From Candidatus Saccharimonadota bacterium (lineage in GTDB: Bacteria > Patescibacteriota > Gracilibacteria > BD1-5 > UBA6164), in the NCBI GenBank assembly GCA_965227835.1, contig OZ245768.1, positions 990,001 to 1,022,000 of the forward strand: a stretch of DNA of 32,000 nucleotides, in the 5' to 3' direction. Positions 5,179 to 30,009 of the stretch are shown here, in pieces (positions within the stretch are counted from its first letter, which is position 1; the number at the start of each line of letters is the position of its first letter). Below the pieces are notes generated by a model, which had not been told where the DNA came from, did not search any database, and saw only the letters and a program-made list of their open reading frames with translations. The position numbers and the translations under genes were made by a program.

Positions 5179-5796
5179 GTAAATATCTACCAGTAGAACT
5201 GGTAGCTTTAAATGGAAGCCCCTAGAAGGGGCTAAAATAGTTTTTACCAGTTTAAATCTAACTGATTTCCATCAATGGTTTTATCCTTATGTTGCTGATG
5301 TTGAACATAATTTTTTATCATATCCAAGTCAAGTCAAACTGTACTTACATAGTATCATCTACTCCAGAAATTCTTCGAGTACAGTCATTTCTTCTTACTA
5401 TGTTTGTTATGAAGTATTATTGCACTCTTTCATTTCAATCTTCACAGAATTTCTGCAACAGAGTATTTTGGAGATATCCTCAAAACGAGATGAACATGAT
5501 CTATCGTTATATTTCATTTTAATATCTCAAAATCATATCTCTTTGCAAGTTCATGAAATGTGTCTCGTATATCTTTTCTAACTGATTGAAAAAGTATTTT
5601 TTTTCGGTACTTTGGTACCACCACTATGTGGTAAGTGCAGTCCCAATTCACATGGGACTGCTTTGCGTATTTGTGGGACATATCTTTAAAAAGTTATTCC
5701 CCTCCTAGGTGCTTCCTAGAAGATTATACACAACTACCGGAACGGTAAAACCTCCACTACTCGCACCAGCAGAGCTGGTGGTTTAGTGTTGGATTA
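5179..5796 (-). mobile_element. IS200/IS605-family insertion sequence (618 bp)
   Basis: It is absent from the otherwise identical copy, where the empty site is atgattca|attatc at 10688/10689. There is no target-site duplication. Subterminal hairpins are present: agcccctagaaggggct (~5217-5233), ccagtagaactgg (~5190-5202) and caccagcagagctggtg (~5765-5781). It encodes a Y1 transposase. Confidence 0.85.
5244..5681 (-). CDS. tnpA: IS200-type Y1 (HUH) transposase TnpA, 145 aa
   Basis: Reads MSHKYAKQSHVNWDCTYHIVVVPKYRKKILFQSVRKDIRDTFHELAKRYDFEILKGNITIDHVHLVLRISPKYSVAEILGRLKGKSAIIL...FWSRGYYVSTVGLDLDMIKNYVQHQ.... It has the HxH and RGYY motifs. Four TGA codons fall on conserved Gly positions. Track ORF 5289..5522(+) is its antisense shadow. 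Confidence 0.9.
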
Positions 5797-5969
5797 ATTA
5801 TCTTTCTATAGTCTATGATGTTATTTGAATATTCAGCTTCTTTTGGAAAGTTATATAAATCTGATAATCTTAATACGCTATATAGTTTTCAGTCTTCAGA
5901 TTTATATAGATATCTTTGAACCCATATATTGTGTATTGAAAAAAACAAATCAAATTCAAATTCTGATAA

Positions 5970-6228
5970 TTAGAAACTCATACTTTCTTTGATTTTTTCT
6001 CACTTTTCATTCAACTTATAATCCGTAATATCAATCTTCTCTCCTTTTTTAATATTATAATTCTTATATTCTTCTAGTATACTATTTCTTTTATTTTCAT
6101 ATTCTTCTTTTAGATCATATAGTTCTTTTTTTATTCTTTTTCTTTTTCATCGTATTTTTTCCATTTCCGTATCAATTTGACTTGACTCAAAGATTCTGTG
6201 TATCTCGTTGAGTTTATTTGTATTGTTT
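5970..6228 (-). pseudogene. Nested remnant of a toxin linker plus a short alternative C-terminus (copy A)
   Basis: Reads NSTRYTESLSQVKLIRKWKKYDEKEKE*KKELYDLKEEYENKRNSILEEYKNYNIKKGEKIDITDYKLNEKGEKIKESMSF*. The first half is near-identical DNA to the linker inside 7101..8384 (INSTGYTEFLSQVKLIRKWKKYDEKEKELKKELYDLKEEY), with a TTA>TAA nonsense change. Confidence 0.45.
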
Positions 6229-7095
6229 ATATATATCTTCAGTCTCTTTTTCCCATTTCTCTATTCAATCTCTCCGGTCTCTTAACATCTCATAAAAATT
6301 ATCAAAATCTATCTTTATATCTTCTTTGTATAATCATATTACCCATATAAAATCTAAATGTTTCTTTGAAACTTTAAATCTTATCATACCTATATAAAAT
6401 TCAACTACATTTTTATCTCATTCTTTTACATCCTCTAATAATGAAATTATTTCTTGTATGTATAATAGGGATATGTCTTTCATATTTGTTACTATTTCAC
6501 AATAAAAACCTGTATGTGGATCCATTATATAACTGTCATTCTGCATACTATGAGATTTAAAGCCTAAATCTGGTTTTTGATTTTCATAATGAACTATTGC
6601 ATAGTCAATATGAAATATTTCAGGGGGTATCCATATATCTCCATCATATGATTCATTATATATAGATCTCTTACAAAAAGGTCATCCTTTTGTCTTTCAT
6701 GTCTCTTTTTCCCAAGCGTCTATATAGTCACTCCAATCTCTCATCATATGTAAAATATCTTCTATTTTTAAGTCTGTTACTATATAATCATCTGCATAAT
6801 TGTATGTAATAGTTACCTCAGAGTTAGGGTACTTTTCTCCATAATATCATTTTCATTTTTGATAACACCAAATTAATGTAGTTTCAAATCAAAATATAAA
6901 CTTCTCTCTCCTTCATTGACTCACTTCTTCAAGTTTACTTACTATCTCTCGAATGTCATATGATCATAGCTGGTTTAGTTCTGTATTTAATAAATAGGGA
7001 TCGTTACTTTCTTTCTCTTTTCAAATTCAATCTACCTTAATTTGAATAAATGGATTAACATTTGTTACAAAATAGTATTCAATTTTATTTAACAT
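6214..7095 (-). CDS. Putative cognate immunity protein of the EndoU-like orphan toxin (copy A, 293 aa)
   Basis: ATG at 7095, 5 nt after the toxin stop. Starts MLNKIEYYFVTNVNPFIQIKVDGIGKEK and ends ...DFDNFYEMLRDRRDGIEKWEKETEDIYKQYK*. No signal peptide. The immunity role is inferred from position only. Confidence 0.55.
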
Positions 7096-7100
7096 AATTT

Positions 7101-8384
7101 TTAATCAATAATAGGATAAAAAGTTCTTAATTCTTTTGTTCTCTCTATATATACAAACTCAATATTTATTCCATCAACTGTTGATGGTCACTTAAATATA
7201 TTTAAACCTAGTCAGGTAGCATTTGGGTCTGCTAATCCCTTATTATTTTCTATTGCATAAGTTACTTCATCTATAATCTTTTGCTTACTCCAGCTATCTG
7301 GGAAAAACGAAGAATTTCATACAGGTTTTCATCATTTTTTTGTTAAAGTATTATTATTTCCATAATCTATAACTACTTTTGCACTGTAAGGTTCATTCCA
7401 AGTATCAATTGATTTGTCTATATCTTCTAATTTAGCTACTCATTGTTGATTACTTTTGTTATAATGAGTTATTGCCTTTTGAGAATGAACTCAGTTGAAA
7501 GTTCAGTCTGACTTAAACTTAATCTCTACAATATGATCTATCTTTCATTCTACTTTCTTCCTTACATCTTTCACATATTTTACTCATTTGAATGATTTTT
7601 GTATAAGTGATTGTTCTCTTACTTTCTTCAAAAAATTCTCCAAACTCAATTTATCTTTCAATCTAACTATATCTTCTATATCGTCTAGCTTATATTCCTT
7701 AGCAACCTCTTTTGCTACTTCAAATATCTCTTCAATCTTCATTCATAGCTCTTTTCATAATTTCTCTAGAGATTTATTTAATAATTCTCTTGCTCATGAT
7801 CAACTTCATGCACCACTTGCTAATCATATTATTGTTAGAGTCTTTCAGAGTGTTCATAATTCATCACCTGTTATTGGATCTTTTCAGATAACTAGTGTTA
7901 ATATATCATATCACTCTCATACAATTGGGATTAGTGATACTATTATACTTGTTGTATTTCAATATTCTTCTTTTAGATCATATAGTTCTTTTTTTAATTC
8001 TTTTTCTTTCTCATCGTATTTTTTCCATTTCCGTATAAGTTTGACTTGACTCAAAAATTCTGTGTATCCTGTTGAGTTTATTTGTATTGTTTCTTGTTTT
8101 GTTGGTTGTTCTTTTGTTTTTGATTCAATGTTTGCTATGGATGTATTATCATATCTTGCTATTAATCTTTCTTTGTAATAGGTGATTTTGTTATTTCTTT
8201 TTATGTAGGGTTTAAAATTATTACATATTTCACAATTTTGTTTTGAATATCATACTATATATATTCCATCTTCCCTTTTTTCTAGTTTTTGTCTTTTAAT
8301 TTCTCAGTTTTTTGTTTGGTATTCAACTCACACTTCTTCCAGGGTTTCTGGGTCTGTGTTTATTTTGAATTTAAACTGGATTTT
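7101..8384 (-). CDS. Orphan toxin module A: junction segment, PT-TG-like domain and EndoU-like nuclease; no start codon
   Basis: A stop-to-stop frame of 427 codons. Junction segment: ...NTDPETLEEVGVEYQTKNGEIKRQKLEKREDGIYIVGYSKQNCEICNNFKPY.... Pre-toxin TG-like: ...SLIPIVGEGYDILTLVIGKDPITGDELGTLGKTLTIIGLASGAGSGSG.... Bacterial EndoU pattern: ...DHIVEIKFKSDGTFNGVHS...SSFFPDSWSKQKIIDEVTYAIENNKG...GPSTVDGINIEFVYIERTKELRTFYPIID*. The first in-frame ATG lies deep inside. Confidence 0.7.
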
Positions 8385-10861: not shown

Positions 10862-11120
10862 TTAGAAACTCATACTTTCTTTGATTTTTTCTCACTTTTC
10901 ATTCAACTTATAATCCGTAATATCAATCTTCTCTCCTTTTTTAATATTATAATTCTTATATTCTTCTAGTATACTATTTCTTTTATTTTCATATTCTTCT
11001 TTTAGATCATATAGTTCTTTTTTTATTCTTTTTCTTTTTCATCGTATTTTTTCCATTTCCGTATCAATTTGACTTGACTCAAAGATTCTGTGTATCTCGT
11101 TGAGTTTATTTGTATTGTTT
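10862..11120 (-). pseudogene. Nested toxin-linker remnant (copy B)
   Basis: Identical to 5970..6228 at an offset of 4892, including the same internal TAA. Confidence 0.45.
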
Positions 11121-11987
11121 ATATATATCTTCAGTCTCTTTTTCCCATTTCTCTATTCAATCTCTCCGGTCTCTTAACATCTCATAAAAATTATCAAAAT
11201 CTATCTTTATATCTTCTTTGTATAATCATATTACCCATATAAAATCTAAATGTTTCTTTGAAACTTTAAATCTTATCATACCTATATAAAATTCAACTAC
11301 ATTTTTATCTCATTCTTTTACATCCTCTAATAATGAAATTATTTCTTGTATGTATAATAGGGATATGTCTTTCATATTTGTTACTATTTCACAATAAAAA
11401 CCTGTATGTGGATCCATTATATAACTGTCATTCTGCATACTATGAGATTTAAAGCCTAAATCTGGTTTTTGATTTTCATAATGAACTATTGCATAGTCAA
11501 TATGAAATATTTCAGGGGGTATCCATATATCTCCATCATATGATTCATTATATATAGATCTCTTACAAAAAGGTCATCCTTTTGTCTTTCATGTCTCTTT
11601 TTCCCAAGCGTCTATATAGTCACTCCAATCTCTCATCATATGTAAAATATCTTCTATTTTTAAGTCTGTTACTATATAATCATCTGCATAATTGTATGTA
11701 ATAGTTACCTCAGAGTTAGGGTACTTTTCTCCATAATATCATTTTCATTTTTGATAACACCAAATTAATGTAGTTTCAAATCAAAATATAAACTTCTCTC
11801 TCCTTCATTGACTCACTTCTTCAAGTTTACTTACTATCTCTCGAATGTCATATGATCATAGCTGGTTTAGTTCTGTATTTAATAAATAGGGATCGTTACT
11901 TTCTTTCTCTTTTCAAATTCAATCTACCTTAATTTGAATAAATGGATTAACATTTGTTACAAAATAGTATTCAATTTTATTTAACAT
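11106..11987 (-). CDS. Putative cognate immunity protein of the EndoU-like orphan toxin (copy B)
   Basis: Same sequence as 6214..7095 at an offset of 4892. ATG lies 5 nt after the toxin stop. Confidence 0.55.
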
Positions 11988-11992: not shown

Positions 11993-13960
11993 TTAATCAA
12001 TAATAGGATAAAAAGTTCTTAATTCTTTTGTTCTCTCTATATATACAAACTCAATATTTATTCCATCAACTGTTGATGGTCACTTAAATATATTTAAACC
12101 TAGTCAGGTAGCATTTGGGTCTGCTAATCCCTTATTATTTTCTATTGCATAAGTTACTTCATCTATAATCTTTTGCTTACTCCAGCTATCTGGGAAAAAC
12201 GAAGAATTTCATACAGGTTTTCATCATTTTTTTGTTAAAGTATTATTATTTCCATAATCTATAACTACTTTTGCACTGTAAGGTTCATTCCAAGTATCAA
12301 TTGATTTGTCTATATTTTCTAATTTAGCTACTCATTGCTGGTTACTTTTATTATAATGAGTTATTGCCTTTTGAGAATGAACTCAGTTGAAAGTTCAGTC
12401 TGACTTAAACTTAATCTCTACAATATGATCTATCTTTCATTCTACTTTCTTCCTTACATCTTTCACATATTTTACTCATTTGAATGATTTTCGTATAAGT
12501 GATTGTTCTCGTACTTTCTTCAAAAACTTCCCCAAACTCAACTTATTCTTCATTTTCACTATATCTCCTATATCATCCAGTTTATATTCCTTAGCAATCT
12601 CTTTTGCTACTTCAAGTATCTCTTCAATCTTCATTCATAGCTCTTTTGATAATTTCTCTAGAGATTTATTTAATAATTCTCTTGCTCATAATCAGCTTCA
12701 TGCACCACTTGCTAATCATATTATTGTTAGAGTCTTTCAGAGTGTTCATAATTCATCACCTGTTATTGGATCTTTTCAGATAACTAGTGTTAATATATCA
12801 TATCACTCTCATACAATTGGGATTAGTGATACTATTATACTTGTTGTATTTCAATATTCTTCTTTTAGATCATATAGTTCTTTTTTTAATTCTTTTTCTT
12901 TCTCATCGTATTTTTTCCATTTCCGTATAAGTTTGACTTGACTCAAAAATTCTGTGTATCCTGTTGAGTTTATTTGTATTATTTCTTGTTTTGTTGGTTG
13001 TTCTTTTGTTTTTGATTCAATGTTTGCTATGGATGTATTATCATATCTTGCTATTAATCTTTCTTTGTAATAGGTGATTTTGTTATTTCTTTTTATGTAG
13101 GGTTTAAAATTATTACATATTTCACAATTTTGTTTTGAATATCATACTATATATATTCCATCTTCCCTTTTTTCTAGTTTTTGTCTTTTAATTTCTCAGT
13201 TTTTTGTTTGATATTCAACTCATACTTCTTCCAGAGTTTTTGGGTTTGTGTTTATTTTAAATTTAAATCCTCATATTATTTCATCTATTAGGTTTTCTAT
13301 GAAGTATTCTATTTCTATTAGATTTTTTTCTTCATTCGTGGTTTCTTTGGTATTTTCATTTTTTCCCTCTTCATCACTATCTTTTCAACTCTCAAGATTC
13401 TCTCATCATAACACTTTCAATAAAACACTTTCCTTATTTCATTCTCTATCTTCCATTCATATTATAACTTCTCATACTTCTATAGCCTTTATCTCAATAT
13501 AGTTTGTTTCAAAATAATTTACTGGGTTGCTACTATACTTTTTATATAATAATGCCTTATTATTAGTCTTGGTTAATTGTATGTGTCAGTTACTTTCATA
13601 TATTGGAAGTAGATATTTTTCTCAGATTTCTAGTTCTAATTCTTTATCTCTTTGAGAGATTACTAGATTTGTGTCTTTTATTTCAACTTCTATTTTTGCT
13701 TCTTGTCCGTATTTATCAAATATCTTTGCTTTGGTTTCTCATTTCTTTTTTCCTTTGATTTTTATTTCTCAGTCTTTGTCTACATCAAAATATATTATTT
13801 CTTCGTTGTATTCTCAATTTTTGTATCATCATCATCAGTCTAGTATTTTTCATTGGTATTTCTCATTTTCTTTTAATACTACTTTGTTTTTGTCTAACTT
13901 TATTTTAGGGGTTTTGTCTTTTATCTTTACTTTGAATTTAATCCGTTTCAAACATCTTTT
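11993..13960 (-). CDS. Orphan toxin module B: two Ig-like repeats, junction segment, PT-TG-like domain and EndoU-like nuclease; no start codon
   Basis: A stop-to-stop frame of 655 codons that opens directly after TAA 13961-13963. It begins ...KVKIKDKTPKIKLDKNKVVLKENEKYQGKILDGGGGYKNGEYNEEIIYFDVDKDGEIKIKGKKKGETKAKIF.... This stretch is near-identical DNA to 20820-21280 of the full-length toxin. From 13267 down it matches module A. Confidence 0.7.
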
Positions 13961-14017: not shown

Positions 14018-14554
14018 CTATGAAAATCTCTCAAGGTTATTCATTCTTTTCAATCTCGTTTTTTTAACGATCCCAGTCATTTTCGTATAAAGTAAATAAT
14101 ACTCACAGCATTTCAAAACTCTCTCTCTAGTATCATCAAAAGAAAGCCATTCTCTCTTTATATCCTCTATAGCTTGCTTTGATTCTTCTTGTGTATATTC
14201 TTTTGATTTTACTAATTTATATTCTTTTAAATTTTCTCAATCTTTTTCTAATTCATGATATAATATTTTTATTTTCAATTTCCCATCTCTGAGTAAAGGA
14301 TAGAGATAGTCTAGGGTAAGGTCTAGTTGTTTTTCTCTATTGTATTTAATCTTTTCATACTCTTTATCTGTTATATTTTCTCACCAAAATTCATTTAATC
14401 ATACTGAATATTTATTTTCATATAAATCATAAACTACTACTGCTCTTCTTTCCTTGAATGAAAATCAGTCGCATATTCAATGTCTATCTATTATTTCATT
14501 TCAGTATCAATCTTTCGGAATTATTAGTCAATTAGTGTAAGCTTTTTTTAACAT
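14018..14554 (-). CDS. Array paralog 1 (putative immunity protein, 178 aa)
   Basis: Starts MLKKAYTNGLIIPKDGYGNEIIDRHGICDGFSFKERRAVVVYDLYENKYSVGLNEFW (N-type a). Contains ...LDLTLDYLYPLLRDGKLKIKILYHELEKDGENLKEYKLV... (short middle). (CT)5 at 14119-14128. Ends ...YYLLYTKMTGIVKKTRLKRMNNLERFS* inside the conserved box. Confidence 0.65.
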
Positions 14555-14566
14555 ATTAAAATATTT

Positions 14567-15235
14567 CTATTTAGGTAATAAAAATTTTATCTCACTAGGT
14601 CAATCTATTCATCATTCTTTCAATAAATCCATAGTAACTTCATGTCTATACCCAGCTTCTCTCACCTGCTTATCACTACTGTGAAAATCTCTCAAGGTTA
14701 TTCATTGCTTTCAGTTTCGTTTTTTTAACAATCCCATTCGTTTTCGTATAAAGTAAATAATACTCAACACATCTCAAAACTCTCTCTCTCTAGTATCTTT
14801 AATAGAAAGCCATTTTTTCTTAATATCTTCTATTACTTTTTGAGACTCTTTTTTAGTATACTCTGTATCATAAATCCAAGCTCAATCCCAATTAGAGTCC
14901 TGTAAGGAATTTTCAAAGTATTGCCTCCACCAATCATTAAGAGGGTTCTGTAATTCTTTTTTTAAATCTTTCTTAGTTTTTAAAAGTTTTTTAGTTTTTA
15001 CTTTCAACTTTCCATCTCTGAGTAAAGGATAGAGATAGTCTAGGGTAAGGTCTAGTTGTTTTTCTTCTGGTATTCTATTATATGTTCCTTTCGGCATATC
15101 ACATAACCAAAATTCATTTAATCATTTTGAATATTTATTTTCATATAAATCATATAAAAAATATTCTATTCATTCTTTATCTGTAAATCACTCTGTTATT
15201 CAATATATATCTTTTATGTCTTTTATTTTTTTCAT
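14567..15235 (-). CDS. Array paralog 2 (222 aa), frame-shifted into the toxin-tail frame
   Basis: Starts MKKIKDIKDIYGITEGFTDKEGIEYFLYDLYENKYSKGLNEFW (N-type b), with the long middle segment (track ORF 14882..15097 is part of it). (CT)6 at 14780-14791 makes the ORF continue as ...GITLRDFHSSDKQVREAGYRHEVTMDLLKEGGIDGPSEIKFLLPK*. Confidence 0.6.
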
Positions 15236-15369
15236 AATTCTATTGATTAGGAAGTAAAAACTTTATTTCAATCCCTTCTCATCTTAATTTTTGTAGTTTT
15301 CAATCTTTCCACTTCAACAAATCTATAGTAACTTCATGCTTAAACCCAGCATCATTCACTTGCTTATCA

Positions 15370-15975
15370 CTACTGTGAAAATCTCTCAAGGTTATTCACT
15401 CTTTTCAATCTCGTTTTTTTAACGATCCCATTCATTTTCATATAAAGTAAATAATACTCAAGACATCTCAAAACTCTCTCTCTAGTATCTTTAATAGAAA
15501 GCCATTTTTTCTTAATATCTTCTATTGCTTTTTGAGACTCTTTTTTAGTATACTCTGTATCATAAATCCAAGCTCAATCCCAATTAGAGTCCTGTAAGGA
15601 ATTTTCAAAGTATTGCCTCCACCAATCATTAAGAGGGTTCTGTAATTCTTTTTTTAAATCTTTCTTAGTTTTTAAAAGTTTTTTAGTTTTTACTTTCAAC
15701 TTTCCATCTCTTAATAAGGGATATAAATATACCAATGTAAGATCTAGTTGTTTTTCTCTATCATCTTTAATCTTTTCCCATTCTTCACCTGTTATATTTT
15801 CTCACCAAAATTCATTTAATCATACTGAATATTTATTTTCATATAAATCATAAACTACTACTGCTCTTCTTTCCTTGAATGAAAATCAGTCGCATATTCA
15901 ATGTCTATCTATTATTTCATTTCAGTATCAATCTTTCGGAATTATTAGTCAATTAGTGTAGGCTTTTTTTAACAT
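15370..15975 (-). CDS. Array paralog 3 (201 aa)
   Basis: N-type a (MLKKAYTNG...), long middle (...KVKTKKLLKTKKDLKKELQNPLNDWWRQYFENSLQDSNWDGAWIYDTEYTKKESQKAIEDIKKKWLSIKD). (CT)5 at 15474-15483. Ends ...NNLERFSQ*. Confidence 0.65.
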
Positions 15976-16096
15976 ATTAAAATATTTCTATTTAGGTAAT
16001 AAAAATTTTATCTCACTAGGTCAATCTATTCATCATTCTTTCAACAAATCTATAGTAACTTCATGCTTAAACCCAGCATCATTCACTTGCTTATCA

Positions 16097-16588
16097 CTAC
16101 TGTGAAAATCTCTCAAGGTTATTCATTGATTTCAGTTTCGTTTTTTTAACGATCCCATTCGTTTTCGTATAAAGTAAATAATACTCAACACATCTCAAAA
16201 CTCTCTCTATAGTATCATCAAAAGAAAGCCATTCTCTCTTTATATCCTCTATAGCTTGCTTTGATTCTTCTTGTGTATATTCTTTTGATTTTACTAATTT
16301 ATATTCTTTTAAATTTTCTCAATCTTTTTCTAATTCATGATATAATATTTTTATTTTCAATTTCCCATCTCTGAGTAAAGGATAGAGATAGTCTAAAGTT
16401 AACAATAATGCTTCTTCTTCTGATATTCTATTATATGTTCCTTTCGACATATCACATAACCAAAATTCATTTAATCATTTTGAATATTTATTTTCATATA
16501 AATCATATAAAAAATATTCTATTCATTCTTTATCTGTAAATCACTCTGTTATTCAATATATATCTTTTATGTCTTTTATTTTTTTCAT
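16097..16588 (-). CDS. Array paralog 4 (163 aa)
   Basis: N-type b (MKKIKDIKDIYG...), short middle. (CT)4AT at 16201-16210, which has the same length as (CT)5. Ends ...NNLERFSQ*. Confidence 0.65.
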
Positions 16589-16757
16589 AATTCTATTGAT
16601 TAGGAAGTAAAAACTTTATTTCAATCCCTTCTCATCTTAATTTTTGTAGTTTTCAATCTTTCCACTTCAATAAATCCATAGTAACTTCATGTCTATACCC
16701 AGCTTCTCTCACTTGTGTATCACTACTATGAAAGTCTCTCAAGGTTATTCATTGATT

Positions 16758-17315
16758 TTAGTTTCGTTTTTTAACGATCCCAGTCATTTTCGTATAAAGT
16801 AAATAATACTCAAGACATCTCAAAACTCTCTCTCTAGTATCTTTAATAGAAAGCCATTTTTTCTTAATATCTTCTATTACTTTTTGAGACTCTTTTTTAG
16901 TATACTCTGTATCATAAATCCAAGCTCAATCCCAATTAGAGTCCTGTAAGGAATTTTCAAAGTATTGCCTCCACCAATCATTAAGAGGGTTCTGTAATTC
17001 TTTTCTTAAATCTTTCTTAGTTTTTAAAAGTTTTTTAGTTTTTACTTTCAACTTTCCATCTCTTAGTAAAGGATAGAGATAGTCTAGGGTAATGTCTAGT
17101 TGTTGTTCTCTATTATCTTTTATTTTCTCCCATTCCTCTTGAGTTATGGTACTATTCATAAAATAATTTAGTCACACCGACTGTTTATTCCAATACAAAT
17201 CATAAATAGTTACAATCTTACCATTTTCCTCATCCACAGAAAATCAATCACAAATACCATAAATATCTTTGATTCTTTCTTTTTCTAAAAATTTTTTAAA
17301 GTTATTATCCTCCAT
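16758..17315 (-). CDS. Array paralog 5 (185 aa)
   Basis: Starts MEDNNFKKFLEKERIKDIYGICDGFSVDEENGKIVTIYDLYWNKQSVGLNYF (N-type d), long middle (contains track ORF 16926..17159). (CT)5 at 16826-16835. A T6 rather than T7 run gives the earlier end ...GIVKKRN*. Confidence 0.65.
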
Positions 17316-17479
17316 AACACATATTATTGTTTAGGTAATATAAATTTTACTTCTTTTACCTTTCCAAATTCTCACTTATTGTTTGTCTTCAACAAATCCA
17401 TAGTAACTTCATGTCTATACCCAGCTTCTCTCACCTGCTTATCACTACTGTGAAAATCTCTCAAGGTTATTCATTGATT

Positions 17480-18049
17480 TTAGTTTCGTTTTTTAACGAT
17501 CCCAGTCATTTTCGTATAAAGTAAATAATACTCACAGCATTTCAAAACTCTCTCTCTAGTATCTTTAATAGAAAGCCATTTTTTCTTAATATCTTCTATT
17601 ACTTTTTGAGACTCTTTTTTAGTATACTCTGTATCATAAATCCAAGCTCAATCCCAATTAGAGTCCTGTAAGGAATTTTCAAAGTATTGCCTCCACCAAT
17701 CATTAAGAGGGTTCTGTAATTCTTTTCTTAAATCTTTCTTAGTTTTTAAAAGTTTTTTAGTTTTCACTTTCAATTTCCCATCTCTGAGTAAAGGATAGAG
17801 ATAGTCTAGGGTAATGTCTAGTTGTTTTTCTCTATTATATTTAATCTTTTCATACTCTTTATCTGTTATATTTTCTCACCAAAATTCATTTAATCATACT
17901 GAATATTTATTTTCATATAAATCATAAACTACTACTGCTCTTCTTTCCTTGAATGAAAATCAGTCGCATATTCAATGTCTATCTATTATTTCATTTCAGT
18001 ATCAATCTTTCGGAATTATTAGTCAATTAGTGTAAGCTTTTTTTAACAT
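17480..18049 (-). CDS. Array paralog 6 (189 aa)
   Basis: N-type a, long middle. (CT)5 at 17548-17557. T6 run, so it ends ...GIVKKRN*. Confidence 0.65.
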
Positions 18050-18205
18050 ATTAAAATATTTCTATTTAGGTAATAAAAATTTTATCTCACTAGGTCAATC
18101 TATTCATCATTCTTTCAATAAATCCATAGTAACTTCATGTCTATACCCAGCTTCTCTCACCTGCTTATCACTACTGTGAAAATCTCTCAAGGTTATTCAT
18201 TGATT

Positions 18206-18757
18206 TTAGTTTCGTTTTTTAACGATCCCAGTCATTTTCGTATAAAGTAAATAATACTCAAGACATCTCAAAACTCTCTCTCTAGTATCTTTAATAGAAA
18301 GCCATTTTTTCTTAATATCTTCTATTACTTTTTGAGACTCTTTTTTAGTATACTCTGTATCATAAATCCAAGCTCAATCCCAATTAGAGTCCTGTAAGGA
18401 ATTTTCAAAGTATTGCCTCCACCAATCATTAAGAGGGTTCTGTAATTCTTTTCTTAAATCTTTCTTAGTTTTTAAAAGTTTTTTAGTTTTCACTTTCAAT
18501 TTCCCATCTCTGAGTAAAGGATAGAGATAGTCTAGGGTAATGTCTAGTTGTTTTTCTCTATTATATTTAATCTTTTCATACTCTTTATCTGTTATATTTT
18601 CTCACCAAAATTCATTTAATCATACTGAATATTTATTATAGTATAACCTATATACAGTAACAATGATTCTATCTTTATCTGTGAATCAAGAACATATACC
18701 ATGAAAATCTTTTATTCACTTTTTTTCTAAAAATTCATTCAATTCATTATCTATCAT
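18206..18757 (-). CDS. Array paralog 7 (183 aa)
   Basis: Starts MIDNELNEFLEKKGIKDFHGICSGFTDKDRIIVTVYRLYYNKYSVGLNEFW (N-type c), long middle. (CT)5 at 18274-18283. Ends ...GIVKKRN*. Confidence 0.65.
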
Positions 18758-18934
18758 AATTCTATTTGTTAGGAAGTAAAAATTTCACCTCCTTTTCAAT
18801 TGGTTTTAACTCTCACTTATTGTTTGTCTTCAACAAATCCATAGTAACTTCATGCTTAAACCCAGCTTCTCTCATTTGTGTATCACTACTGTGAAAATCT
18901 CTCAAGGTTATTCATTCTTTTCAGTTTCGTTTTT

Positions 18935-19411
18935 TTAACGATCCCATTCATTTTCATATAAAGTAAATAATACTCAACACATCTCAAAACTCTCTCTCTC
19001 TCTAGTATCATCAAAAGAAAGCCATTCTCTCTTTATATCCTCTATAGCTTGCTTTGATTCTTCTTGTGTATATTCTTTTGATTTTACTAATTTATATTCT
19101 TTTAAATTTTCTCAATCTTTTTCTAATTCATGATATAATATTTTTATTTTCAATTTTCCATCTCTGAGTAAAGGATAGAGATAGTCTAGGGTAATGTCTA
19201 GTTGTTGTTCTCTATTGTCTTTAATCTTTTCCCTTTCTTCATCTGTTATATTTTCTCACCAAAATTCATTAAGTCATATTGAATATTTATTATAGTATAA
19301 CCTATATACAGTAACAATGATTCTGTCTTTATCTGTGAATCAAGAACATACACCATGAAAATCTTTTATTCACTTTTTTTCTAAAAATTCATTCAATTCA
19401 TTATTTATCAT
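18935..19411 (-). CDS. Array paralog 8 (158 aa), immediately downstream of the full-length toxin
   Basis: ATG at 19411, 4 nt after the toxin stop. Starts MINNELNEFLEKKGIKDFHGVCSGF (N-type c), short middle. (CT)7 at 18990-19003 puts the 3' end in the third frame, ending ...RERESFEMCGVLFTLYENEWDR*. Confidence 0.6.
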
Positions 19412-19415
19412 AATT

Positions 19416-22400
19416 CTATTTGTTAGGAAGTAAAAATTTCACCTCCTTTTCAATTGGTTTTAACTCTCAATTATTGTTTGTCTTCAACAAATCTATAGTA
19501 ACTTCATGCTTAAACCCAGCATCTCTCACTTGTGTATCACTACTATGAAAATCTCTCAAAGTTATTCATTCTTTTCAATCTGGAGATGTATACCTATAAA
19601 CACTTCATTTATTTGATGGCTTTTTTTCTCACTTCCACCCCTTAGTTTCTAAACTTTTCATTACACCTTCAACTCCTTCCTTATCTCACAATACCTTCAC
19701 TGCTCATCATTCTAATCATTTAACCTTATCTAATCAATCGACCTTTTCTAAATCCTGAGCCACTTTTAATATATCATCAACTCAAGTTATATCCTTAAAT
19801 TTACTTGCTATAAATCAAGACCTTCATGTAGACCTTACCCTCTTCACAACCCTCTCACTACTCTTAGCTCATTTCAGTTTTCCGGGTCATACAAACATCA
19901 AACTAGAACTCACTCATACATATCATTCTATCCATTGTATATTATAGGATGTAAGATATTCTTTATAACCCTCATACTCATTATATACTTCCTCTATTTG
20001 ATTATATAATTCTCATAATCATTCTTTCGCTTTCTCCCAATCTTCTTCTGCTGTTCTTTCTCAAGTTATATATCCATATAGTATTTTTCAGCTTCATTTT
20101 AACAAATTTATTATATCTTTTGGGGTATCTTGTAATTCTTCTATCGTGTCTTTTATTGCTTCTTTACTTCAATCTATATATCATTGATTATCTGTTTTTA
20201 TTTCTCTTATCTTCTTTTTTATATTATAGAATTTTTCTTTTGTTTCTTCTACATATTCTTGTACTCAGCTTATTTCTAGGTTTTCTTCTTTGTTTTTAGT
20301 ATTTGTAGTTCTTATTCTATTATCTGCAAATGAGAGGTATGTATTGGTGTTATAGTATGTTGTAGTATTGTTTGTGTCTATGAAGTATGGTTGAAATTCG
20401 TTGTAACAGTTTATACATATTTCTTTGTCTAATCAGAGTATATATATTCAGTCTTCTTCTTTTTCTAGTTTTTCTCTTACATGATTTCAATTTTCTCATT
20501 TGTATTGTATTCATATTTCTTTTAGGGTTTCTGGGTTTCAAGTTATTTCAAAGTATAGGCTTGATAGTCAATCAATACTTGTATTTGATGAATATTGGAG
20601 GTTAGTGAATTTTGAGGTTTGAGGTTCTTCTCAGTTACTTTCATTTCACTCTTTTTCATTATCTTCTATTTCTTCTTCATTATTCTCATCTCATTTCTCC
20701 TCCTCTCCTTCTCACTTATCTTCTCATCATAACACTCTCAATAACACACTTTCCTTATTTCATTCCCTATCTTCCATTCATATTATAACTTCTCATACTT
20801 CTATAGCCTTTATCTCAATATAGTTTGTTTCAAAATAATTTACTGGATTGCTACTATACTTTTTATATAATAATGCCTTATTATTAGTCTTGGTTAATTG
20901 TATGTGTCAGTTACTTTCATATATTGGAAGTAGATATTTTTCTCAGATTTCTAGTTCTAATTCTTTATCTCTTTGAGAGATTACTAGATTTGTGTCTTTT
21001 ATTTCAACTTCTATTTTTGCTTCTTGTCCGTATTTATCAAATATCTTTGCTTTGGTTTCTCATTTCTTTTTTCCTTTGATTTTTATTTCTCAGTCTTTGT
21101 CTACATCAAAATATATTATTTCTTCGTTGTATTCTCAATTTTTGTATCATCATCATCAGTCTAGTATTTTTCATTGGTATTTCTCATTTTCTTTTAATAC
21201 TACTTTGTTTTCTTTTAATTTTATTTTGGGGGTTTTGTCTTTTATCTTTACTTTGACTATGCTTATTATATCTCAACTTTGATATATATATAGTTCTGTT
21301 TCTCATTTGGTTTTTCATATTATAGAGAATTTTTCATAATTAGTTCTTTTCCCGTTTTCCCATATTCTTTGTTTACTTATTTGTATTATTTCCGGATTTG
21401 TTGTTGAGAATGTATAGTCTTTATTTATTTCTTGTTTGAATGATTCGCATGTTATTCATATTGGTACTTCGCATTCATATGTTCTTGGGGGTTTAGGTTT
21501 TATTGTTATTTCTAGTATGTGGCTTATGTAGTCTCAATCATAGGATTTTACATATATATTTGAAGTTCAGCTTAGTTTTCATTCTAGTTTTATTTTATTT
21601 TTTGTTCAGTTTATTTCTATTATGTTGGGTCTTGAATTGTTATAATAGTATCATCTGTTTTCTATTTTAAATAAGCAACTTTTTCATACTTCTGTTTCAC
21701 ATTTGTGTATTCTTGGGTTTGGAACTGGTTTTACTTTTACATTCCATATTTTCCTTAGTCATTTTCAACTTTTGTATATCTTTATTTTTGTTGTTCAGGC
21801 TTTTTTTCAGCATATTCAGTTTATTTTTTCCGTTTCTCAAGCTACTCTTTTTTTTATTCACCATTCAACACTAGCTATACCACTATTATCTGGCTTAAAG
21901 TTATAATCATCTCTATACCATGTTTTTATACAATCTGTTTCATTTAGGGTAAAATTTTCCTCACTTGCTTTGGATATTATTTTTATTTCATATCTTGGCC
22001 ATTTCCTTCAATCTTTTTCATTTATGTATATTGTTGATTCTCAAATTTTATCAGGATCTATATACACTGTATCCTTTCATACTCTAAGTCTGTAATCAAA
22101 TAATCATAAATTATCTGATTTTATGTCATAGTTGTCTACATTTTCTGGTAATATTAATTTTTGGGTGGCTCATACCTCCATTTCTATTTTGTATTTTTTA
22201 AATGGGGGTTTAGGTATTATTGTTATTTTATAGGTCTTTTTATTTCTTCATAAGGAATCTTTTACATAAATTTCTGTTTCTCATCATACTTGTCATCTTA
22301 TGTATGTTTTTTTATCATGAGGTCTTCTTTTTATACTAGTAAAATGGTTATTACTGGTTATTTTGTGTCAAGGTGAAATATATTCTAGTATTTCATCTCA

Positions 22401-25400
22401 TTGATAAATTGTTCTTGTTTCTATTTCTGGAGGATCTGTTATTATATTTATATCTAATATGTGCCTGACTACTCAATCACCACCTGATAAGTAATATTTT
22501 ATCTTTCAAAATAGGTTTCATCTAAATTTCATTACTTTAAAATAATGATTGTATTCAAGTTTAGACATTGATTTTACACTATGTTCTCACTCAACTGAAT
22601 AGCTGTAATATGTGTTACCTATTCAATATATATTTATATATGTTCATTCTTTTATGTTTAGAGTATGGATTTTTGGTTCTGGTAAGGGTATTATTTTTAC
22701 TTTATGATTAGCAACATGATATCACCTAGTTTTCACATATAATTCTAATTCTCAATCCTTTTTTCATGTAATACAATAACCTTTTTCATATATTTCTAAT
22801 TCAGCTAATTCTTCATTATTCGTGGAATATTCAGTTTCTATTCATACTTCTATACATTTCCTCTTTGAATTATATACCTCAAATACTTTTTCTTCTATTT
22901 TTGGATGCACCATTATATCTATAGTATATAGATGTATATTTTGATCATATACTCTATATCTTACTTTTCAGGGGGTTTTTCATAAAAGTTTTATATCCCA
23001 ATTTTTTTGATGTGTTTCTATTTCTCAACCATCTAGCCTGTCATAATAAAATTTAAGATCCCTTCAATTAGTTTTAACTACTAAATCAGAGTATTCTCAT
23101 TGTTTAATATTTAAATCATATTGTATTACCTCAGGGGCTGGTTTTATTATTAGTTTAATTATATATTTATTTGATACTCTTATATATGCTGTTCATATTT
23201 CTTTTGCTCTTATTGTGAAATCGCGATATCCCTTAGATAAATCTACCAAACTATTACTCGATATAGAGTAATTTTCGCTGTAAGCTTTTTTTAGGTATCT
23301 TTTGTATGCTTGTCATTTATAAATTTCTATTTCAAATGTAGGTGGAGGAGTTATGGTAAGCTTTAATATATATTGTAAATATCAATTTTTATCTGATACT
23401 TTAATATTTACAGTTCAAACTTTTTTTGCACTTAAAATATATTGATCCTCTCTAGTTCAAATACTTATTATATCATTATTAGATACTTCATATTTATGGT
23501 TTCGAGCATTTTTTAGATTTACTATTGAATTCTTTCATTCTTGTAATGAAATATTTTTAATTTCTACAGGTTTTATGTTTAACTTTAGAGTATATATATG
23601 TATATTTTGTCTATTTTTAATTTTTACATACAAAGTTCCAACTTTTTTTGTAAGTAAATGATAATAGTCACCTCCTTTAGAAAAACTAGCTAAGCTCCTA
23701 TCCGATAATTCATATCTATATATCCAAGTAGCCGGTAATTTCTCAGAGTGTTTTTTTCAAACATTGATGCTTCTATCAAAAACAGGAATTCATTTTATAC
23801 TAAGACTGACTTTATGATCTGTATGGCTACGACGAGGATCTGTTATTTTTATAGTAACATTTCAAGCTTTTCTAGCATATATACGAAATGACCTTCTTAT
23901 TTTTTTTATTTCTACTAAACTAGGATTTGATACTTGAATTCTTTTGTATGAATGAACAAAATAATAATTTCAAACTGTTATACTTTTATATTTAGTAGGA
24001 AGGTATCTATTTATACTAATTCAATCTGTTTGCTCTTCTTGAAATGTTTCAGGTTCTATAATTAATTCCTCTCATAAATCATCGTTTTCTTCTAACATAT
24101 CTCCATTTTCTTCTTTTATTTTTTCATTTTCTTCAAACTCTTTTATGTATAATTCTTTTTCTTGATTTTTATCTTCTAGATTATCTTCTCAAAGACTGTT
24201 TATTTCTATATTTCATGTTTCATCATTTAAAAAACTATTTTTCTCTATTTCTTCTAACTCTTCTTGACTTATAATTCATGGTTTTATTTCTTCTACTTCA
24301 TTTCGTTTCATTAATTCTTCTAGCTCTTCTTCACTTAATTCTAACTCATAGTTACTCTTAGAACCATCAGAAAAATTATTTATTTCAAGTCAGCCATCCT
24401 CGTAATTTTCTATAATTTCTATTTCTTCTTTTTTTATCTCTCATATTTCTGAATTGTTATTTTTAAGATAATCTAGCATTTCTTTTTCTTCTTCACTGCT
24501 CAATTTTTCTTCGTCTTGATTATCTTTTTCATTTATTTTTTCAAATTTGAGGAACTCTATACTACTTTTTTCATCATTTCAAATATTTTCATCTAAATTA
24601 TTTATTTTTATTCAATTTTCCTCTTCTATAATCAACTCCTTATCATAAAAGTCATTTATTCTCTCTAGTTTTACTTCTTTGTTTTCTAGCTTTTCTCATA
24701 ATTCTAAACCTCATGAAAAACCATTTATAATCTCATTTGGATTATAATTTTTTACTTCTAACTCTTGGAAGTTTTCTTCTGTGTATAAACCATTATTTTC
24801 TCAAGTATTATTTATCTCTAGTCATTTTTCTGCTCAATCTATATACAATTCTTTTGTATGTTTCAATTCATCTATTTTTTCTTCTATTTCAATTTCCACA
24901 TTTTTAAATCATTCTAAACCTAGTTCTTCTTCATTTATTTCTAGTTTTTCTTCCTTTTTTCATAGCTCATATTCTTCTAAAAACAAATCTTTAAGATCTT
25001 GTTTTTGATTATTATTTATTTCTACTCATTTCTCTGCTCAATCTATATACAATTCTTGCATTTTATTTTCAAGCTCAGGAGAATTTTCTAAAAAAGTTTT
25101 TTCTTCTATTTCTTCATTCTCATAAAAATCTTGAGATATATCTTTATAGTTAAAATCCTTTCACACAGGTATTCAGTGCGTTATTTTTTCACTATTTAAT
25201 TCAGTATTTCAAATATCATTTATTTCTATATTTTTTATTTCTACATTTTCATCAAAATACCTGTCTCAAAAAATACCATCAAATTTCTTTGATTCTTCTT
25301 TTATTAGTTCTAATTTTTCTAATTCTCCATATGTAAATATAGATTTATTTTCTTTGTAATTTTGATTTATTTCTAAATTTTCCTTAGAGTTTAAAAAATT

Positions 25401-27518
25401 TAGTAAAATTGGATTTAGTTTTGTATTTTCAGATTCTTGTGTAGCTTCATTTTCTTCTATTTTTTGTTCTGTATCTTCTTTTTTTTCTTCAAGAAATTTA
25501 CTACTTTCTATTAACTCTATTTTTTCAACTATTAAAGCATCATCTTTATTTTCCTGTAAATTATCTCCTTTTCCTTCCTCTATCTTCCCTTCTTCCACTT
25601 TTTCTTCAGTCTCTTGTTCTTGCTTAATTTCATCACTAATTTCTTCCTTATCTTCTTCTTTTTTAATTTCATTTTCTTTACCTTTATTCTCCTCTAATTC
25701 ACTTTTCTTTTCTTCTATTCCATTTTCAACTGTTTCTTCACTTTCAACTTTCAACTTTTCCCTTTCAACTAAGCTTAATTCTAGTGAAGATATTATTTGA
25801 TTTAAGCTGGCAAATTTGGAAATTGGTTTATTTGACTCTGTTATAATACTTGTAGAATTTTCTTGCAATATTTGCCTAGCTTGTTTTGTTGTAAGATTTG
25901 GTTTGTAGCTTTTTATTATTGATATTAATCATACTATATGAGGAGTAGCCATGCTTGTTCAGCTTAATCTCCTATAGTTTCATTTATTTGTTGGGAATGT
26001 TGAATATATTGATACTCATGGAGCATTTATATCTACTTTGTCTCAATAATTTGAGAAACTTGCTCTGGTATTACTTTCATCTATTGCTGCTACTGATATT
26101 GTTTCCTCGCATCATCATGGAATATAGTTTCTTGTATCAGTATTTCAGTTTCAACTAGCTGATACAATTATTTTTCAGTTTCTAGTTGCTGATTTTATTC
26201 AATCACATATTGGATTACTGTTAGGATTTCATCTTCATCAAAGACTCATATTTACTATATCTATATCATTTTCTTTTATATATTCTAGTGCCTTTATTAC
26301 TGCATAATTTGGACAAAATCAATTCTTATCACATATTTTTAGTGGAATTATTTTACTGTAGGGATTTATTCAAAGTATTCATTTTCAATCTAATTTTGAT
26401 GATATTGTTCAAGCTATATGAGTTCAGTGTCATTGGTCATCCTGAGTGTCTTTTTCTGGATTTATAAAATTTTGTCATTTTAGAACCTGTCATTTTAGAT
26501 CTGGGTGATTTGAATCTATTCAAGTATCTATTATGGCTATTTTTATTTTTTTATTATTTTGTTTTTGATAAATTTCTGTTTGTTTTTCTAGTTTTAAAAG
26601 GTAGTTTATAGGATTATATTTTCTTATACCCCATGTTTTTTCCAAATTTTCCAAACCTAGTTTATTTTGAATTTCTTTATTTCTTTTTAAAAATTCTTCA
26701 TCTTTTTCTAACACTCTTCATATATCCTTCTCTCCTTTAAGGAGAGGGGCTAGGGGTGAGGTCTCCTCAGATTGAGTCGGGAGTGATGATTGTTCAGACT
26801 TGGACGAACTTTGGTTTATAGAATATATTTCTGGTTTTACTATTTTTATATTTAAAAAATTTTCTGGAATTTTTCATATTTCTATTTGTCATAATATCTC
26901 TTCTACAAATATTCAACTTTCTGGTAGTGTTATCTCATAATATTTTTGTTTTCAATTATTATAAAGGTAATTTATCTTGGTTTTTTCTTCGAATTTTTCA
27001 AAAATATTTTTTACATGATTTTTATTTTTGTTTGTTTCTACTATAAGTGTATAGTTTTTTTCTTGCTTTAGCGAATTTTTCAGTGTATCATAAGCTTGTT
27101 TTTTCTTTCTTAGACTTGGTGCTATATCCTCATCTATTCAGCTTGATAATTTAGTATCTTTACTAAGACTTGATACAGCTTTTAAAACAACTTTCTTTCT
27201 TGTATCTTGGGCTATTTTATTGATGTTTTTTGTACTTTTTTCTTTCTGTATTTGTTCTTGAGCTTCCTCTAAAGTCTCTTTTATTTCTTCTTTTTTTTCT
27301 TCTAGTTTTTCTTGCAACTCTTCATCTTTTATTACATCTTCCATTTTATCAGTTGCTTTTTCTAAGACTTTTTCTACTTTTTCTAGAAATTTTTCTGTTT
27401 TTTGCCTAGTTTGCTCTATTTGAGCTTTTTCTGATTGAACAGATGCATAAATTATTTGTATGTTGGTATTTCATAAAAGAAATACCAATAAAAGAAGTTT
27501 GCATATTGTTTTTTGCAT
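19416..27518 (-). CDS. Giant secreted polymorphic-toxin protein (2700 aa): signal peptide, S8 subtilisin-like protease, acidic repeats, about 13 Ig-like repeats, PT-TG-like linker, HicA-like C-terminal domain
   Basis: ATG at 27518 gives MQKTICKLLLLVFLLGNTNIQIIYASVQ. With TGA=Gly one frame runs to TAG 19416-19418 (8103 nt, a multiple of 3). Track ORFs 27138..27344, 26520..26714 and 25266..25868 all lie in this frame. I checked the frame at six internal anchor points. I saw no in-frame TAA or TAG during manual translation. Confidence 0.8.
19419..19668 (-). other. C-terminal toxin domain with a HicA/YcfA-like pattern
   Basis: Reads GVMKSLETKGWKGEKKPSNKGSVYRYTSPDGKEGITLRDFHSSDTQVRDAGFKHEVTIDLLKTNNNGELKPIEKEVKFLLPNK*. 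Compare the HicA pattern L..L...GW......GSH..Y.HP.G...T.P.H......GT...I...AGL. The canonical GSH His is Val here. The 19600-19900 stretch looks more G+C-rich than its surroundings. Confidence 0.35.
20830..24010 (-). repeat. About 13 tandem Ig-like (Big_2-type) repeats of about 85-95 aa within the giant CDS
   Basis: A recurring pattern of the type ...G.(T/V).(I/L)Y(V/I)K......Y.(I/L).(I/V).(I/V).P.P.... Examples are KGETELYIYQSGDIISIVKVKIKDKTP, VGTLYVKIKNRQNIHIYTLKLNIKP and GTSNIYVKSYDGDYISHILEITIKPKPP. Confidence 0.55.
24010..25800 (-). repeat. Acidic E/K-rich low-complexity region with reiterated ...G..(E/K)IN(N/S)... modules
   Basis: Examples are ELYIDGAEKGVEINNNQ, ELYIDGAEKGLEINNTGENNG, ENGIKINNLDENIGN, EDGGLEINNFSDGS, ETGNIEINSLGEDN and DIGNTELNSEK, embedded in Glu/Lys-rich spacers. 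Confidence 0.5.
25808..26591 (-). other. Peptidase S8 (subtilisin-like) domain of the giant CDS
   Basis: Catalytic triad motifs are KIAIIDTGIDSNHPDL (Asp codon 26526-26528), DDQGHGTHIAGTI (His codon 26427-26429) and LSGTSMATPHIVG (Ser codon 25953-25955). There is also VSASGNGN. Several of the motif Gly residues are TGA. Confidence 0.85.
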
Positions 27519-27557: not shown

Positions 27558-27741
27558 ATATTTACAATATTAACAGGACATTAATTTTTAGAATTTTTTA
27601 ATTGACGAACGCTAATTAATCATTTTTACATTACATTAAAGTACTAATAGATAATATCCTAACTATATTTTTTATAACTTTTAAATATATTTTTCAAGGT
27701 AACTCTGCAGAAAAAGTAATCTTTTTACTATTTTTCAACAG

Positions 27742-28030
27742 AAGGCTTTAGCCTTTTGCATTTTGTTCTTAAGGTTTCGAGCAAGACTAACCTTTAATCT
27801 TTTATTCTTTATTTTCCTTCAACAGAAGGCTTTAGCCTTTTGTCATTTATTTTTCGTGAACAGAAAACTTTAGCCTTTTGCATTTTATTTCTTATAGGCA
27901 GAGAACTTTAGCTCTTTGTACTTAAGGCTTCGAGCAAGACTAACCTTTAACCTTTTATTCTTTATTTCCCTTCAAAAGAAGGCTTTAGCCTTTTGCCCCT
28001 TATTTTTCATCAACAGAGAGCTTTAACCTT
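27742..28030. repeat. Intergenic array of six short palindromic (REP-like) units within a ~150-bp tandem duplication
   Basis: The core is caacagaaggctttagccttttg (stem aaggct/agcctt), found at ~27742, 27826 and 27979, with degenerate copies at ~27864, 27903 and 28017. A longer block, ttaagg(t/c)ttcgagcaagactaacctttaa(t/c)cttttattctttatt, occurs twice (~27770 and ~27922). Confidence 0.5.
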
Positions 28031-29900: not shown

Positions 29901-30009
29901 TTCTCGTTCAATTTTAATTTTTGATATTAATAGATTATATGATAAATTGCTTTTTTTCAATTTTAGTATAGCATATTAGAAATAAAATACATTTCTAAAT
30001 TTATAAAAA

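Follow-up and report, generated by a model that had tools for sequence, protein, structure and literature searches.

What kind of protein is specified by a gene of 2700 codons that carries a subtilisin-like protease near one end and a variable tip at the other, and what would the protease do there? The question is raised by the gene at 19416..27518 (minus strand) in a stretch of 32,000 nucleotides of contig OZ245768.1 (positions 990,001 to 1,022,000), which is called the window below and to whose numbering all coordinates refer unless another locus is named. A first-pass annotation had described its product as an unusual toxin scaffold, composed of a Sec signal, an S8 protease, acidic repeats, immunoglobulin (Ig)-like repeats and a PT-TG-like linker before a polymorphic C-terminus, and had suggested that the built-in protease releases or activates the toxin or, alternatively, has a dual role. 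Our analysis indicates that the gene very probably encodes a polymorphic toxin within a toxin-immunity locus. On balance, it is likely to serve as the main toxin gene of a polymorphic toxin system that depends on Sec, in a code-25 bacterium of the Gracilibacteria/Absconditabacteria lineage, with the S8 domain freeing or activating the tip. Taken separately, the chance that release or activation of the toxin is brought about by the S8 domain appears to be about even.

The gene is readable only with genetic code 25, in which TGA specifies glycine and which is the code used by Gracilibacteria and Absconditabacteria. Its frame contains 157 TGA codons, no TAA and a single TAG, i.e., the terminal codon (19416-19418). 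Within the frame from stop to stop (27533-19416), translation can first start at the ATG 27516-27518, which gives a product of 2700 amino acids. Thus, the open reading frame (ORF) is not split by an overlooked TAA or TAG, and the earlier remark that the standard code would shatter it was correct, the "dozens" of TGA codons mentioned then being an understatement. Each of the five remaining frames here contains 106-335 stop codons (TAA, TAG and TGA summed); the G+C content of the window is 25.7%. TGA is found at glycine positions of the S8 motifs, i.e., in DTG (residue 333), in G-H-G (residues 363 and 365) and in GTSMA (residue 520), and it encodes the first glycine of the Walker A motif in the adjoining ABC ATPase. 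In eight ORFs of the window, glycine takes up 6.9% of the codons if TGA is read as glycine and 1.7% otherwise, while tryptophan would reach 5.8% under code 4 (TGA read as tryptophan), which was judged impossible. Because of the position of TGA on the S8 and Walker A glycines and because of these codon shares, TGA is read as glycine and not as stop or tryptophan, and the 2700-residue ORF is, as judged from the sequence, a real gene decoded by code 25. A code-4 or pseudogene reading was rejected, since TGA falls on invariant glycines, a single frame is open and the codon shares disagree with it. The window contains no tRNA genes, hence no tRNA-Gly(UCA) as direct evidence for the code, and an Rfam search returned zero matches.

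The surroundings of the gene are those of a toxin-immunity island, all parts of which described here lie on the minus strand. The candidate for the cognate immunity gene, I1 (158 residues; 18935..19411), has its ATG 4 nucleotides past the toxin stop codon. Seven further immunity paralogues of 163-222 residues are present at 14018..18805 and are interspersed with toxin 3' remnants, one of which is free (15240-15521) and one fused to the end of a paralogue (the C-terminus of 14567-15262). The eight immunity-like paralogues (14018-19411) are mosaics, assembled from variants of an N-terminal (about four), a middle (two) and a C-terminal part (several). Together, these mosaics and the degenerate remnants look as if tips had been replaced serially and immunity genes shuffled.

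Farther along, an orphan cassette (11993..13960) contains the recombination handle discussed below, a β-domain, a PT-TG module (E=7e-9) and an EndoU nuclease (E=9e-14), and the ATG of its own immunity candidate (293 residues; 11106..11987) is located 6 nucleotides after the cassette stop. The EndoU tip and its immunity gene are present in a second copy (5792..8375), which is 98.8% identical over 2585 bp and comprises a 5'-truncated tip at 7101-8384 and an immunity gene at 6214-7095. The handle is a segment of 535 bp within stalk repeats R13 and R14 of the main gene (20722..21256), which is 98.3% identical to 13401-13935, the head of the orphan cassette. By its sequence organization, the locus is a complete and actively recombining polymorphic-toxin island of textbook layout.

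A search with the whole protein returned approximately 22 giant relatives of 1553-3146 residues. Three of them are named Candidatus Gracilibacteria S8 peptidases by NCBI; most carry no source name, and the named ones are all from Gracilibacteria. The relatives have a head consisting of signal peptide, helical region, prodomain and S8 domain, and most of them also have the acidic motif region and the Ig array. The tips connected to these heads are of various kinds: EndoU (proteins P0001 and P0016), colicin E5 RNase (P0003 and P0018; E=3e-23 and 2e-25, respectively), an RNase of family PF00545 (P0011 and P0021), Amidase_2 (P0002) and several without a match in the libraries. In a comparison of P0001, which stems from another strain, with the window protein, the head is the best-conserved part: the S8 head is 94-99% identical, the remainder is a mosaic at 25-89% identity, and the EndoU tip of P0001 is 91-100% identical to the tip of the orphan cassette in the window.

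Another relative, at locus L001 of a Patescibacteria chromosome (OZ245922.1; 1,006,762 bp), is an S8 protein of 2549 residues with a scaffold that is 27-43% identical to that of the window protein. From residue ~2300 on, it is nearly identical to the window cassette, and an I1-type gene follows it. The DNA encoding tip and immunity protein is 85-95% identical between L001:8206-11265 and window positions 13967-20572. The G+C content of the shared cassette is 28.6% in L001, where it is embedded in host DNA of 36-38%, and 27.6% in the window. Therefore, the identity of the cassette and its G+C contrast in L001 indicate a recent transfer of the tip-immunity cassette between species. The modularity of the C-terminal cassette is shown in these alignments by the same tip and immunity gene on a divergent scaffold and by the same head with another tip. 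The polymorphic C-terminus proposed earlier is thus very strongly supported by both locus and family data. The toxin islands of the window and L001 are not syntenic, and the latter holds a Transposase_mut gene (L001:12578-13243).

The family DNA pattern LKIC...G[FY]CP.Y[AG][VI], with TGA allowed for glycine, was found at 23 loci in 185,579 species-representative genomes, and all 23 are long TAA/TAG-free frames rich in TGA. They are assigned to Gracilibacteria, Absconditabacterales or Patescibacteria, with the exception of two "Peribacteria" loci (L003 and L014), one "Saprospiraceae" locus (L023) and one from an "uncultured bacterium". The labels of L003, L014 and L023 are doubted because the gene holds dozens of in-frame TGA codons, and these contigs are probably mis-binned or mislabelled. 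The public relatives P0001, P0004-P0010 and P0013-P0022 are stored in a form translated with the wrong code, in which TGA is rendered as tryptophan (up to 6.8% W).

The protein starts with a signal peptide (residues 1-25; 27444..27518, like all further segments of the gene on the minus strand) of sequence MQKTICKLLLLVFLLGNTNIQIIYA, with a putative cleavage site after IYA and before a serine. No other segment of the protein is hydrophobic. Its n-h-c layout and a VYA/IYA cleavage-type site that is kept across the family agree, by heuristic assignment, with the Sec signal of the first-pass annotation. It is followed by a conserved, charged helical region (residues 26-160; 27039..27443) with the family motifs EKxEEIxEYLEE and KKVVVLKVVSG, and by a prodomain-like segment that is conserved in the family (residues 161-245; 26784..27038), which reads YTLIVET...YYEITL with the tail IKIVKPEIYSI. 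In relatives, the latter segment has the form YSIIVKT...NYFEVF, then ILPExFxGIEIVxPEVFSI. In an AlphaFold2 (AF2) model of homologue P0002, it adopts a β-α-β-β-α-β arrangement at a predicted local distance difference test (pLDDT) score of 60-79 within a model that is poor as a whole (pLDDT 39.6). Subtilisin I9 prodomains have this topology. The Pfam I9 model gave no hit in the main protein at E≤10; by its pattern, the segment appears to be a zymogen-like prodomain of an I9-like type. Residues 246-300 form a lineage-specific insert after the prodomain.

The S8 subtilase domain extends over residues 301-580 (25779..26618; Pfam envelope 25854-26552). Pfam Peptidase_S8 matches residues 323-555 with E=2e-52 and 178.6 bits versus a cut-off of 21.8, and alignment to subtilisins (subtilisin DY, E=7e-49; BPN', E=2e-48) equates D331 (26526-26528), H364 (26427-26429), the oxyanion residue N457 (26148-26150) and S522 (25953-25955) with D32, H64, N155 and S221 of BPN'. 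The residue numbers D331, H364 and S522 given earlier for the triad were exact, and the fold is intact in the region for which that was to be checked. The four catalytic residues are kept in 24 of the 24 family members examined, and the catalytic domain is ~40% identical to the broad-specificity subtilisins DY and BPN'. Thus, by alignment, the subtilase domain is intact and S8A-like, with the full catalytic apparatus.

Between the protease and the stalk lies an acidic region of 585 residues (residues 581-1165; 24024..25778), 31% of which are Asp or Glu and which has a net charge of -112. It contains five motifs of the GxEINN type, x-[VLI]-[EK]-I-N-[NS] (residues 832, 900, 970, 1044 and 1104), which correspond to the acidic INN repeats reported before, and it meets the Ig array at a GISIN junction (residue 1166). 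The equivalent region of P0002 is devoid of secondary structure in the AF2 model, at a pLDDT of 21-39, and the acidic region is probably disordered according to this prediction. In 24 family proteins, the motif [VIL][EQK][IV]N[SNT] occurs 63 times after the S8 domain, where 1.9 occurrences are expected, i.e., a 33-fold enrichment. The motif often reads DGAExGVEINS, and a GIQ[NS] variant is found at the acidic-to-Ig junction in most family members.

The stalk consists of 14 Ig-like β-sandwich repeats of 69-90 residues each (residues 1166-2264; 20727..24023), of which 12 are robust and two, R13 and R14, divergent. In a leave-one-out test with hidden Markov models against 200 shuffles, R1-R12 beat all shuffles, R13 was marginal and R14 was indistinguishable from them. 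The block R9-R12 keeps its position in 14 relatives, with 23-32% identity over >300 residues. The AF2 model of the equivalent block in P0003 shows four all-β domains with a pLDDT of 88.4, and a Foldseek comparison of this repeat model with the PDB retrieved tandem Ig arrays, among them those of pIgR, titin, S-layer proteins and GhpA, at E-values as low as 3e-15. This homologue model supports an Ig-like fold of the repeats. The earlier description of about 13 Big_2-like repeats was therefore right about an Ig-like stalk, for which we count 14 units, and not about the family, since Pfam assigns the repeats to PF13629 (E=4e-18) and gives no match to Big_2 (PF02368).

The array is followed by a second acidic linker (residues 2265-2299; 20622..20726), where the homology with the orphan cassette breaks down, and by a β-domain that leads the cassette (residues 2300-2410; 20289..20621). 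The latter is recognizable by a CxxC...PYF signature and is common to about half of the family and the orphan cassettes. The next segment is a helical pre-toxin module of a family-specific type (residues 2411-2545; 19884..20288), which ends in ...GYVGVSSSLMFVGPGKLKG; a profile made from it gave no match outside the family at E≤1e-3. The first-pass annotation had seen a PT-TG-like linker here. A PT-TG module (PF14449) was rejected for the main gene, as there was no Pfam hit even at E≤10 and a comparison of the junction with true PT-TG segments by hhalign gave a probability of 0.5%; the genuine PT-TG of this locus is in the orphan cassette at 11993-13960.

The pre-toxin module passes into a basic junction (residues 2546-2568; 19815..19883; KLKGAKSSERVVKRVRSTGRSG), in which 8 of 23 residues are Lys or Arg. 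A junction of this type, i.e., a helical ...IKDYI... segment, YYxGY, a short hydrophobic stretch, a proline and a lysine-rich patch, is found in at least eight relatives. The basic junction is a candidate processing site, which we infer by analogy with BetaH toxins (see below). The remaining 132 residues (residues 2569-2700; 19419..19814) constitute the tip, the fold of which matches no library and in which RDFHSSD...HEVT.DLL...KFLLP is invariant among its relatives and remnants. A HicA/dsRBD-like pattern spotted by eye in the tip was unsupported and is not claimed.

How might these parts work together? We propose that the protein would be exported by Sec, after which the prodomain would assist the folding of the protease and then be cut off by it, and that the stalk would present the tip. 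The protease would subsequently cut the same or neighbouring molecules where an exposed linker joins the tip to the stalk, the vicinity of the basic junction (residues 2546-2568) being the most plausible place, and thereby free or activate the toxin as AbpP does with AbpT. The freed tip may then enter related cells that lack the matching immunity protein and act in their cytoplasm, while in kin it would be neutralised by I1. Recombination with the orphan cassettes would allow the weapon to be swapped. The release by the S8 domain is proposed because the catalytic residues are perfectly conserved, the head is the best-conserved part of the protein and precedents have been published; a built-in S8 domain that releases or activates the toxin is, by analogy, plausible. 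The toxicity of the tip is deduced from its context, because the tip matches no toxin family. Our best guess is that it is a cytoplasmic nuclease, since those sister tips that can be identified are RNases and inspection of the sequences of the immunity paralogues, made without a predictor or hydrophobicity scan, revealed neither a signal peptide nor a membrane segment.

The precedents are of several kinds. Zhang, de Souza, Anantharaman, Iyer and Aravind (2012; PMC3482391, Table 1) name subtilisin as one of the processing proteases that are built into polymorphic toxins exported by Sec, and S8 plus RHS plus Ntox32 is a catalogued architecture (PMC3482391). Our search also returned S8-RHS proteins of Firmicutes (P0038 and, from Paenibacillus, P0072) and a protein with S8, PT-HINT and PT-TG modules (P0037). 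Because fusions of S8 to polymorphic toxins thus recur, in S8-RHS proteins, in P0037 and in the ~22 giant relatives, calling the architecture unusual was an overstatement. Like the toxins of the Sec/type II secretion system (T2SS) type described by Zhang et al. (2012), the window protein has a signal peptide, an S8 domain, long repeats, a pre-toxin module and a variable C-terminal toxin, with an immunity gene downstream and orphan cassettes. In contrast to the S8-RHS type, its repeats form an Ig-like array instead of RHS/YD repeats, its pre-toxin module is neither PT-TG nor PT-HINT, and it has a 585-residue acidic motif region, a tip fold outside the libraries and an origin in a code-25 lineage.

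In the S8 polymorphic toxin system (S8-PTS), a separate S8 gene accompanies a BetaH toxin and an immunity gene (Li, Tan and Zhang, 2022; PMC9424270), and cleavage by an S8 protease was shown to activate the toxin (Colautti et al., 2025, PMC12582261; Mwangi et al., 2026, PMC13556192). The mapped cut of AbpP is between Gln and Ala in a loop (PMC12582261), and the basic junction of the window protein resembles a basic patch at which the S8 protease has been suggested to cut BetaH toxins (PMC9424270). As in these S8-PTS/Abp systems of Gram-positive bacteria, a Sec-exported S8 protease is genetically coupled here to a polymorphic toxin as well as to an immunity gene, and the sister tips that can be identified are RNases. 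However, AbpP is a separate small protein and its toxin a BetaH protein of ~300-400 residues, whereas here the S8 domain is fused N-terminally to a scaffold of 2700 residues. Pfam scans of ORFs of the window revealed no separate S8 gene. Nor did BetaH turn up in the Pfam scans, in a Pfam version whose content of a BetaH model was not established; from sequence pattern only, the segments in front of the tip are predicted to be helical or Ig-like. Since the S8 domain is fused and these scans yielded no BetaH match, the protein, although it would work in a similar manner, is placed outside S8-PTS. With CdiA, Rhs and WapA, it shares a conserved scaffold with a swappable tip, downstream immunity arrays with displaced tip remnants, and a homology handle. 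Unlike them, it shows no two-partner secretion (TPS) domain, CdiB, RHS core or VENN/DPxGL motif when it and most neighbouring ORFs are scanned with Pfam, and no type 5, 6 or 7 secretion genes were found in the window by such scans.

Several observations weigh against our proposal. The tip has no match in NCBIfam, PHROGs or PADLOC; with Pfam to E≤10 and sequence and profile searches of the PDB included, the best result is DUF7028 with 24 bits, below the cut-off of 27, beside a non-significant HMA-like match (E=0.69). A search for the tip over 5.8 billion proteins produced a single relative, P0121. The immunity paralogues, likewise, fit no known immunity family in library searches. No cleavage site could be located in the main protein. 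A GVEINS-type motif is found upstream of the tip cassette in 6-7 relatives only and is absent there in the main protein; the AF2 model with the acidic region is poor (pLDDT 39.6) and gave no docking signal. Furthermore, the signal peptide call is a heuristic one, and, as the S8 domain is fused rather than separate, the analogy with Abp would be a functional one only. GVEINS was dropped as the tip-release site of the main protein, since it is lacking upstream of its tip and the motif showed no confidence bump in the (poor) model. A more specific version, i.e., a single-polypeptide, cis-activated S8 toxin of TGA-recoded Gracilibacteria/Absconditabacteria with a stalk cut at GVEINS and/or the basic junction, an uncatalogued tip fold and cassettes traded between episymbiont species, is tentative and falls well short of an even chance.

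The protease could instead serve a purpose of its own. In this explanation, which corresponds to the dual role suggested by the first-pass annotation, the S8 head would be an offensive or nutritional protease, comparable to PrtP (lactocepin) or ScpA (C5a peptidase), that breaks down proteins on the surface or in the S-layer of a target or host cell, and the tip would be delivered or released otherwise; the digestion would feed an auxotrophic episymbiont or clear the path for the tip. Signal peptide, putative prodomain, S8 domain and long β-sandwich extension are indeed shared with PrtP and ScpA and form the general layout of secreted and cell-envelope subtilases (PMC9424270). The similarity to the broad-specificity subtilisins DY and BPN' (~40% identity) would suit such a function, as would the distance of ~2000 residues and 14 domains between the S8 domain and the tip, and a reliance on peptides from the host is assumed for the candidate phyla radiation (CPR) bacteria of this group (PMC8080830). 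Unlike PrtP and ScpA, however, the window protein has no protease-associated (PA) insert and no LPXTG or other anchor, its signal peptide being the only hydrophobic segment, and its C-terminal part is a toxin cassette, behind which an immunity gene follows. In addition, every classifiable relative with an S8 head ends in a variable toxin-type tip, which argues for a functional coupling of head and tip, and the pairs of S8 protease and polymorphic toxin that have been studied experimentally use the protease for activation (PMC12582261; PMC13556192). We consider this explanation rather unlikely, although not negligible.

The stalk invites another explanation, in which an episymbiotic or predatory CPR bacterium would use the protein mainly as a giant adhesin or as a fibre for attachment to its host, with the tip as an effector that acts on host or prey, not on relatives. 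Giant surface proteins of Vampirococcus have been read as host-attachment factors (PMC8080830), the stalk model resembles Ig-array surface proteins, including S-layer proteins and the grappling hook GhpA, and the relative P0002 ends in a peptidoglycan amidase domain. Against this, a tightly coupled gene of the immunity type with a presumably cytoplasmic product, seven paralogues, remnants and orphan cassettes are the signature of weapons that can hit kin, tip and immunity gene travel together between species, and the Pfam scan of the main protein contained no adhesion-specific domain; such a fibre is, in our judgement, quite improbable. Finally, that the locus is not one gene at all, i.e., standard-code fragments or a pseudogene, a code-4 gene or an assembly chimera, is hardly credible: many public relatives are stored with W at TGA positions and standard-code ORF calling breaks the region up, but 2700 codons at ~26% G+C are free of internal TAA and TAG where the other frames have 106-335 stops, TGA falls on invariant S8 and Walker A glycines, full-length homologues exist in ~22 other assemblies and at 23 species-representative loci, and the homologous repeats are modelled confidently by AF2.

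Beside the main toxin gene and the EndoU cassettes, the island contains two further pairs of a tip-like ORF and a partner ORF of ~200 residues, at 9592-10206 with 8974-9591 and at 4283-4918 with 3699-4292 (all minus). Both tip-like ORFs carry HWIT.EVKKTSW...D.YDF...YY...GK.Y.W and resemble the C-termini of P0005, P0006, P0009, P0013 and P0014, and both partners appear by eye to bear an N-terminal membrane helix; none of the four was recognized by any library searched. An IS200/IS605-type Y1 transposase gene (5244-5693, minus; Pfam E=9e-35) is also located inside the island. Upstream of the toxin gene, the intergenic stretch 27740-28040 contains about seven copies of a ~24-nucleotide unit, GCAAAAGGCTAAAGCCTTCTGTTGA, each with a hairpin AAGGC-TAAA-GCCTT, and it includes a direct repeat of 133 bp (27753-27885 and 27906-28038; 87% identical) that has no Rfam match. 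The neighbouring genes encode a radical-SAM protein with a GNAT domain (28152-29975, minus), presumably ELP3-like, and a protein of 436 residues (30007-31320, plus), at whose N-terminus Pfam reports a weak motif for pilin-type methylation (N_methyl, E=0.003).

The system is not categorically new: the type of weapon is known, whereas its lineage and layout are undescribed in the literature searched. No description of polymorphic toxin systems in Gracilibacteria or Absconditabacteria was found in the full-text literature searched, and the Vampirococcus study reads its giant surface proteins only as adhesins (PMC8080830). The locus presents a complete, recombining toxin-immunity island in such an organism, built around a gene that the standard code hides from view and that public databases largely store mistranslated, and it yields a toxin tip and an immunity family that are both unclassified. 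The CPR bacteria in question are believed to attach to other cells or to prey on them, and, to our knowledge, almost nothing is known about their weapons. As a natural fused form of the validated S8-activated toxins, the protein could show whether protease-gated release extends beyond the Firmicutes and works in cis. If the single-polypeptide reading is true, the system would be a principal weapon in strain warfare or host killing among these ultra-small bacteria.

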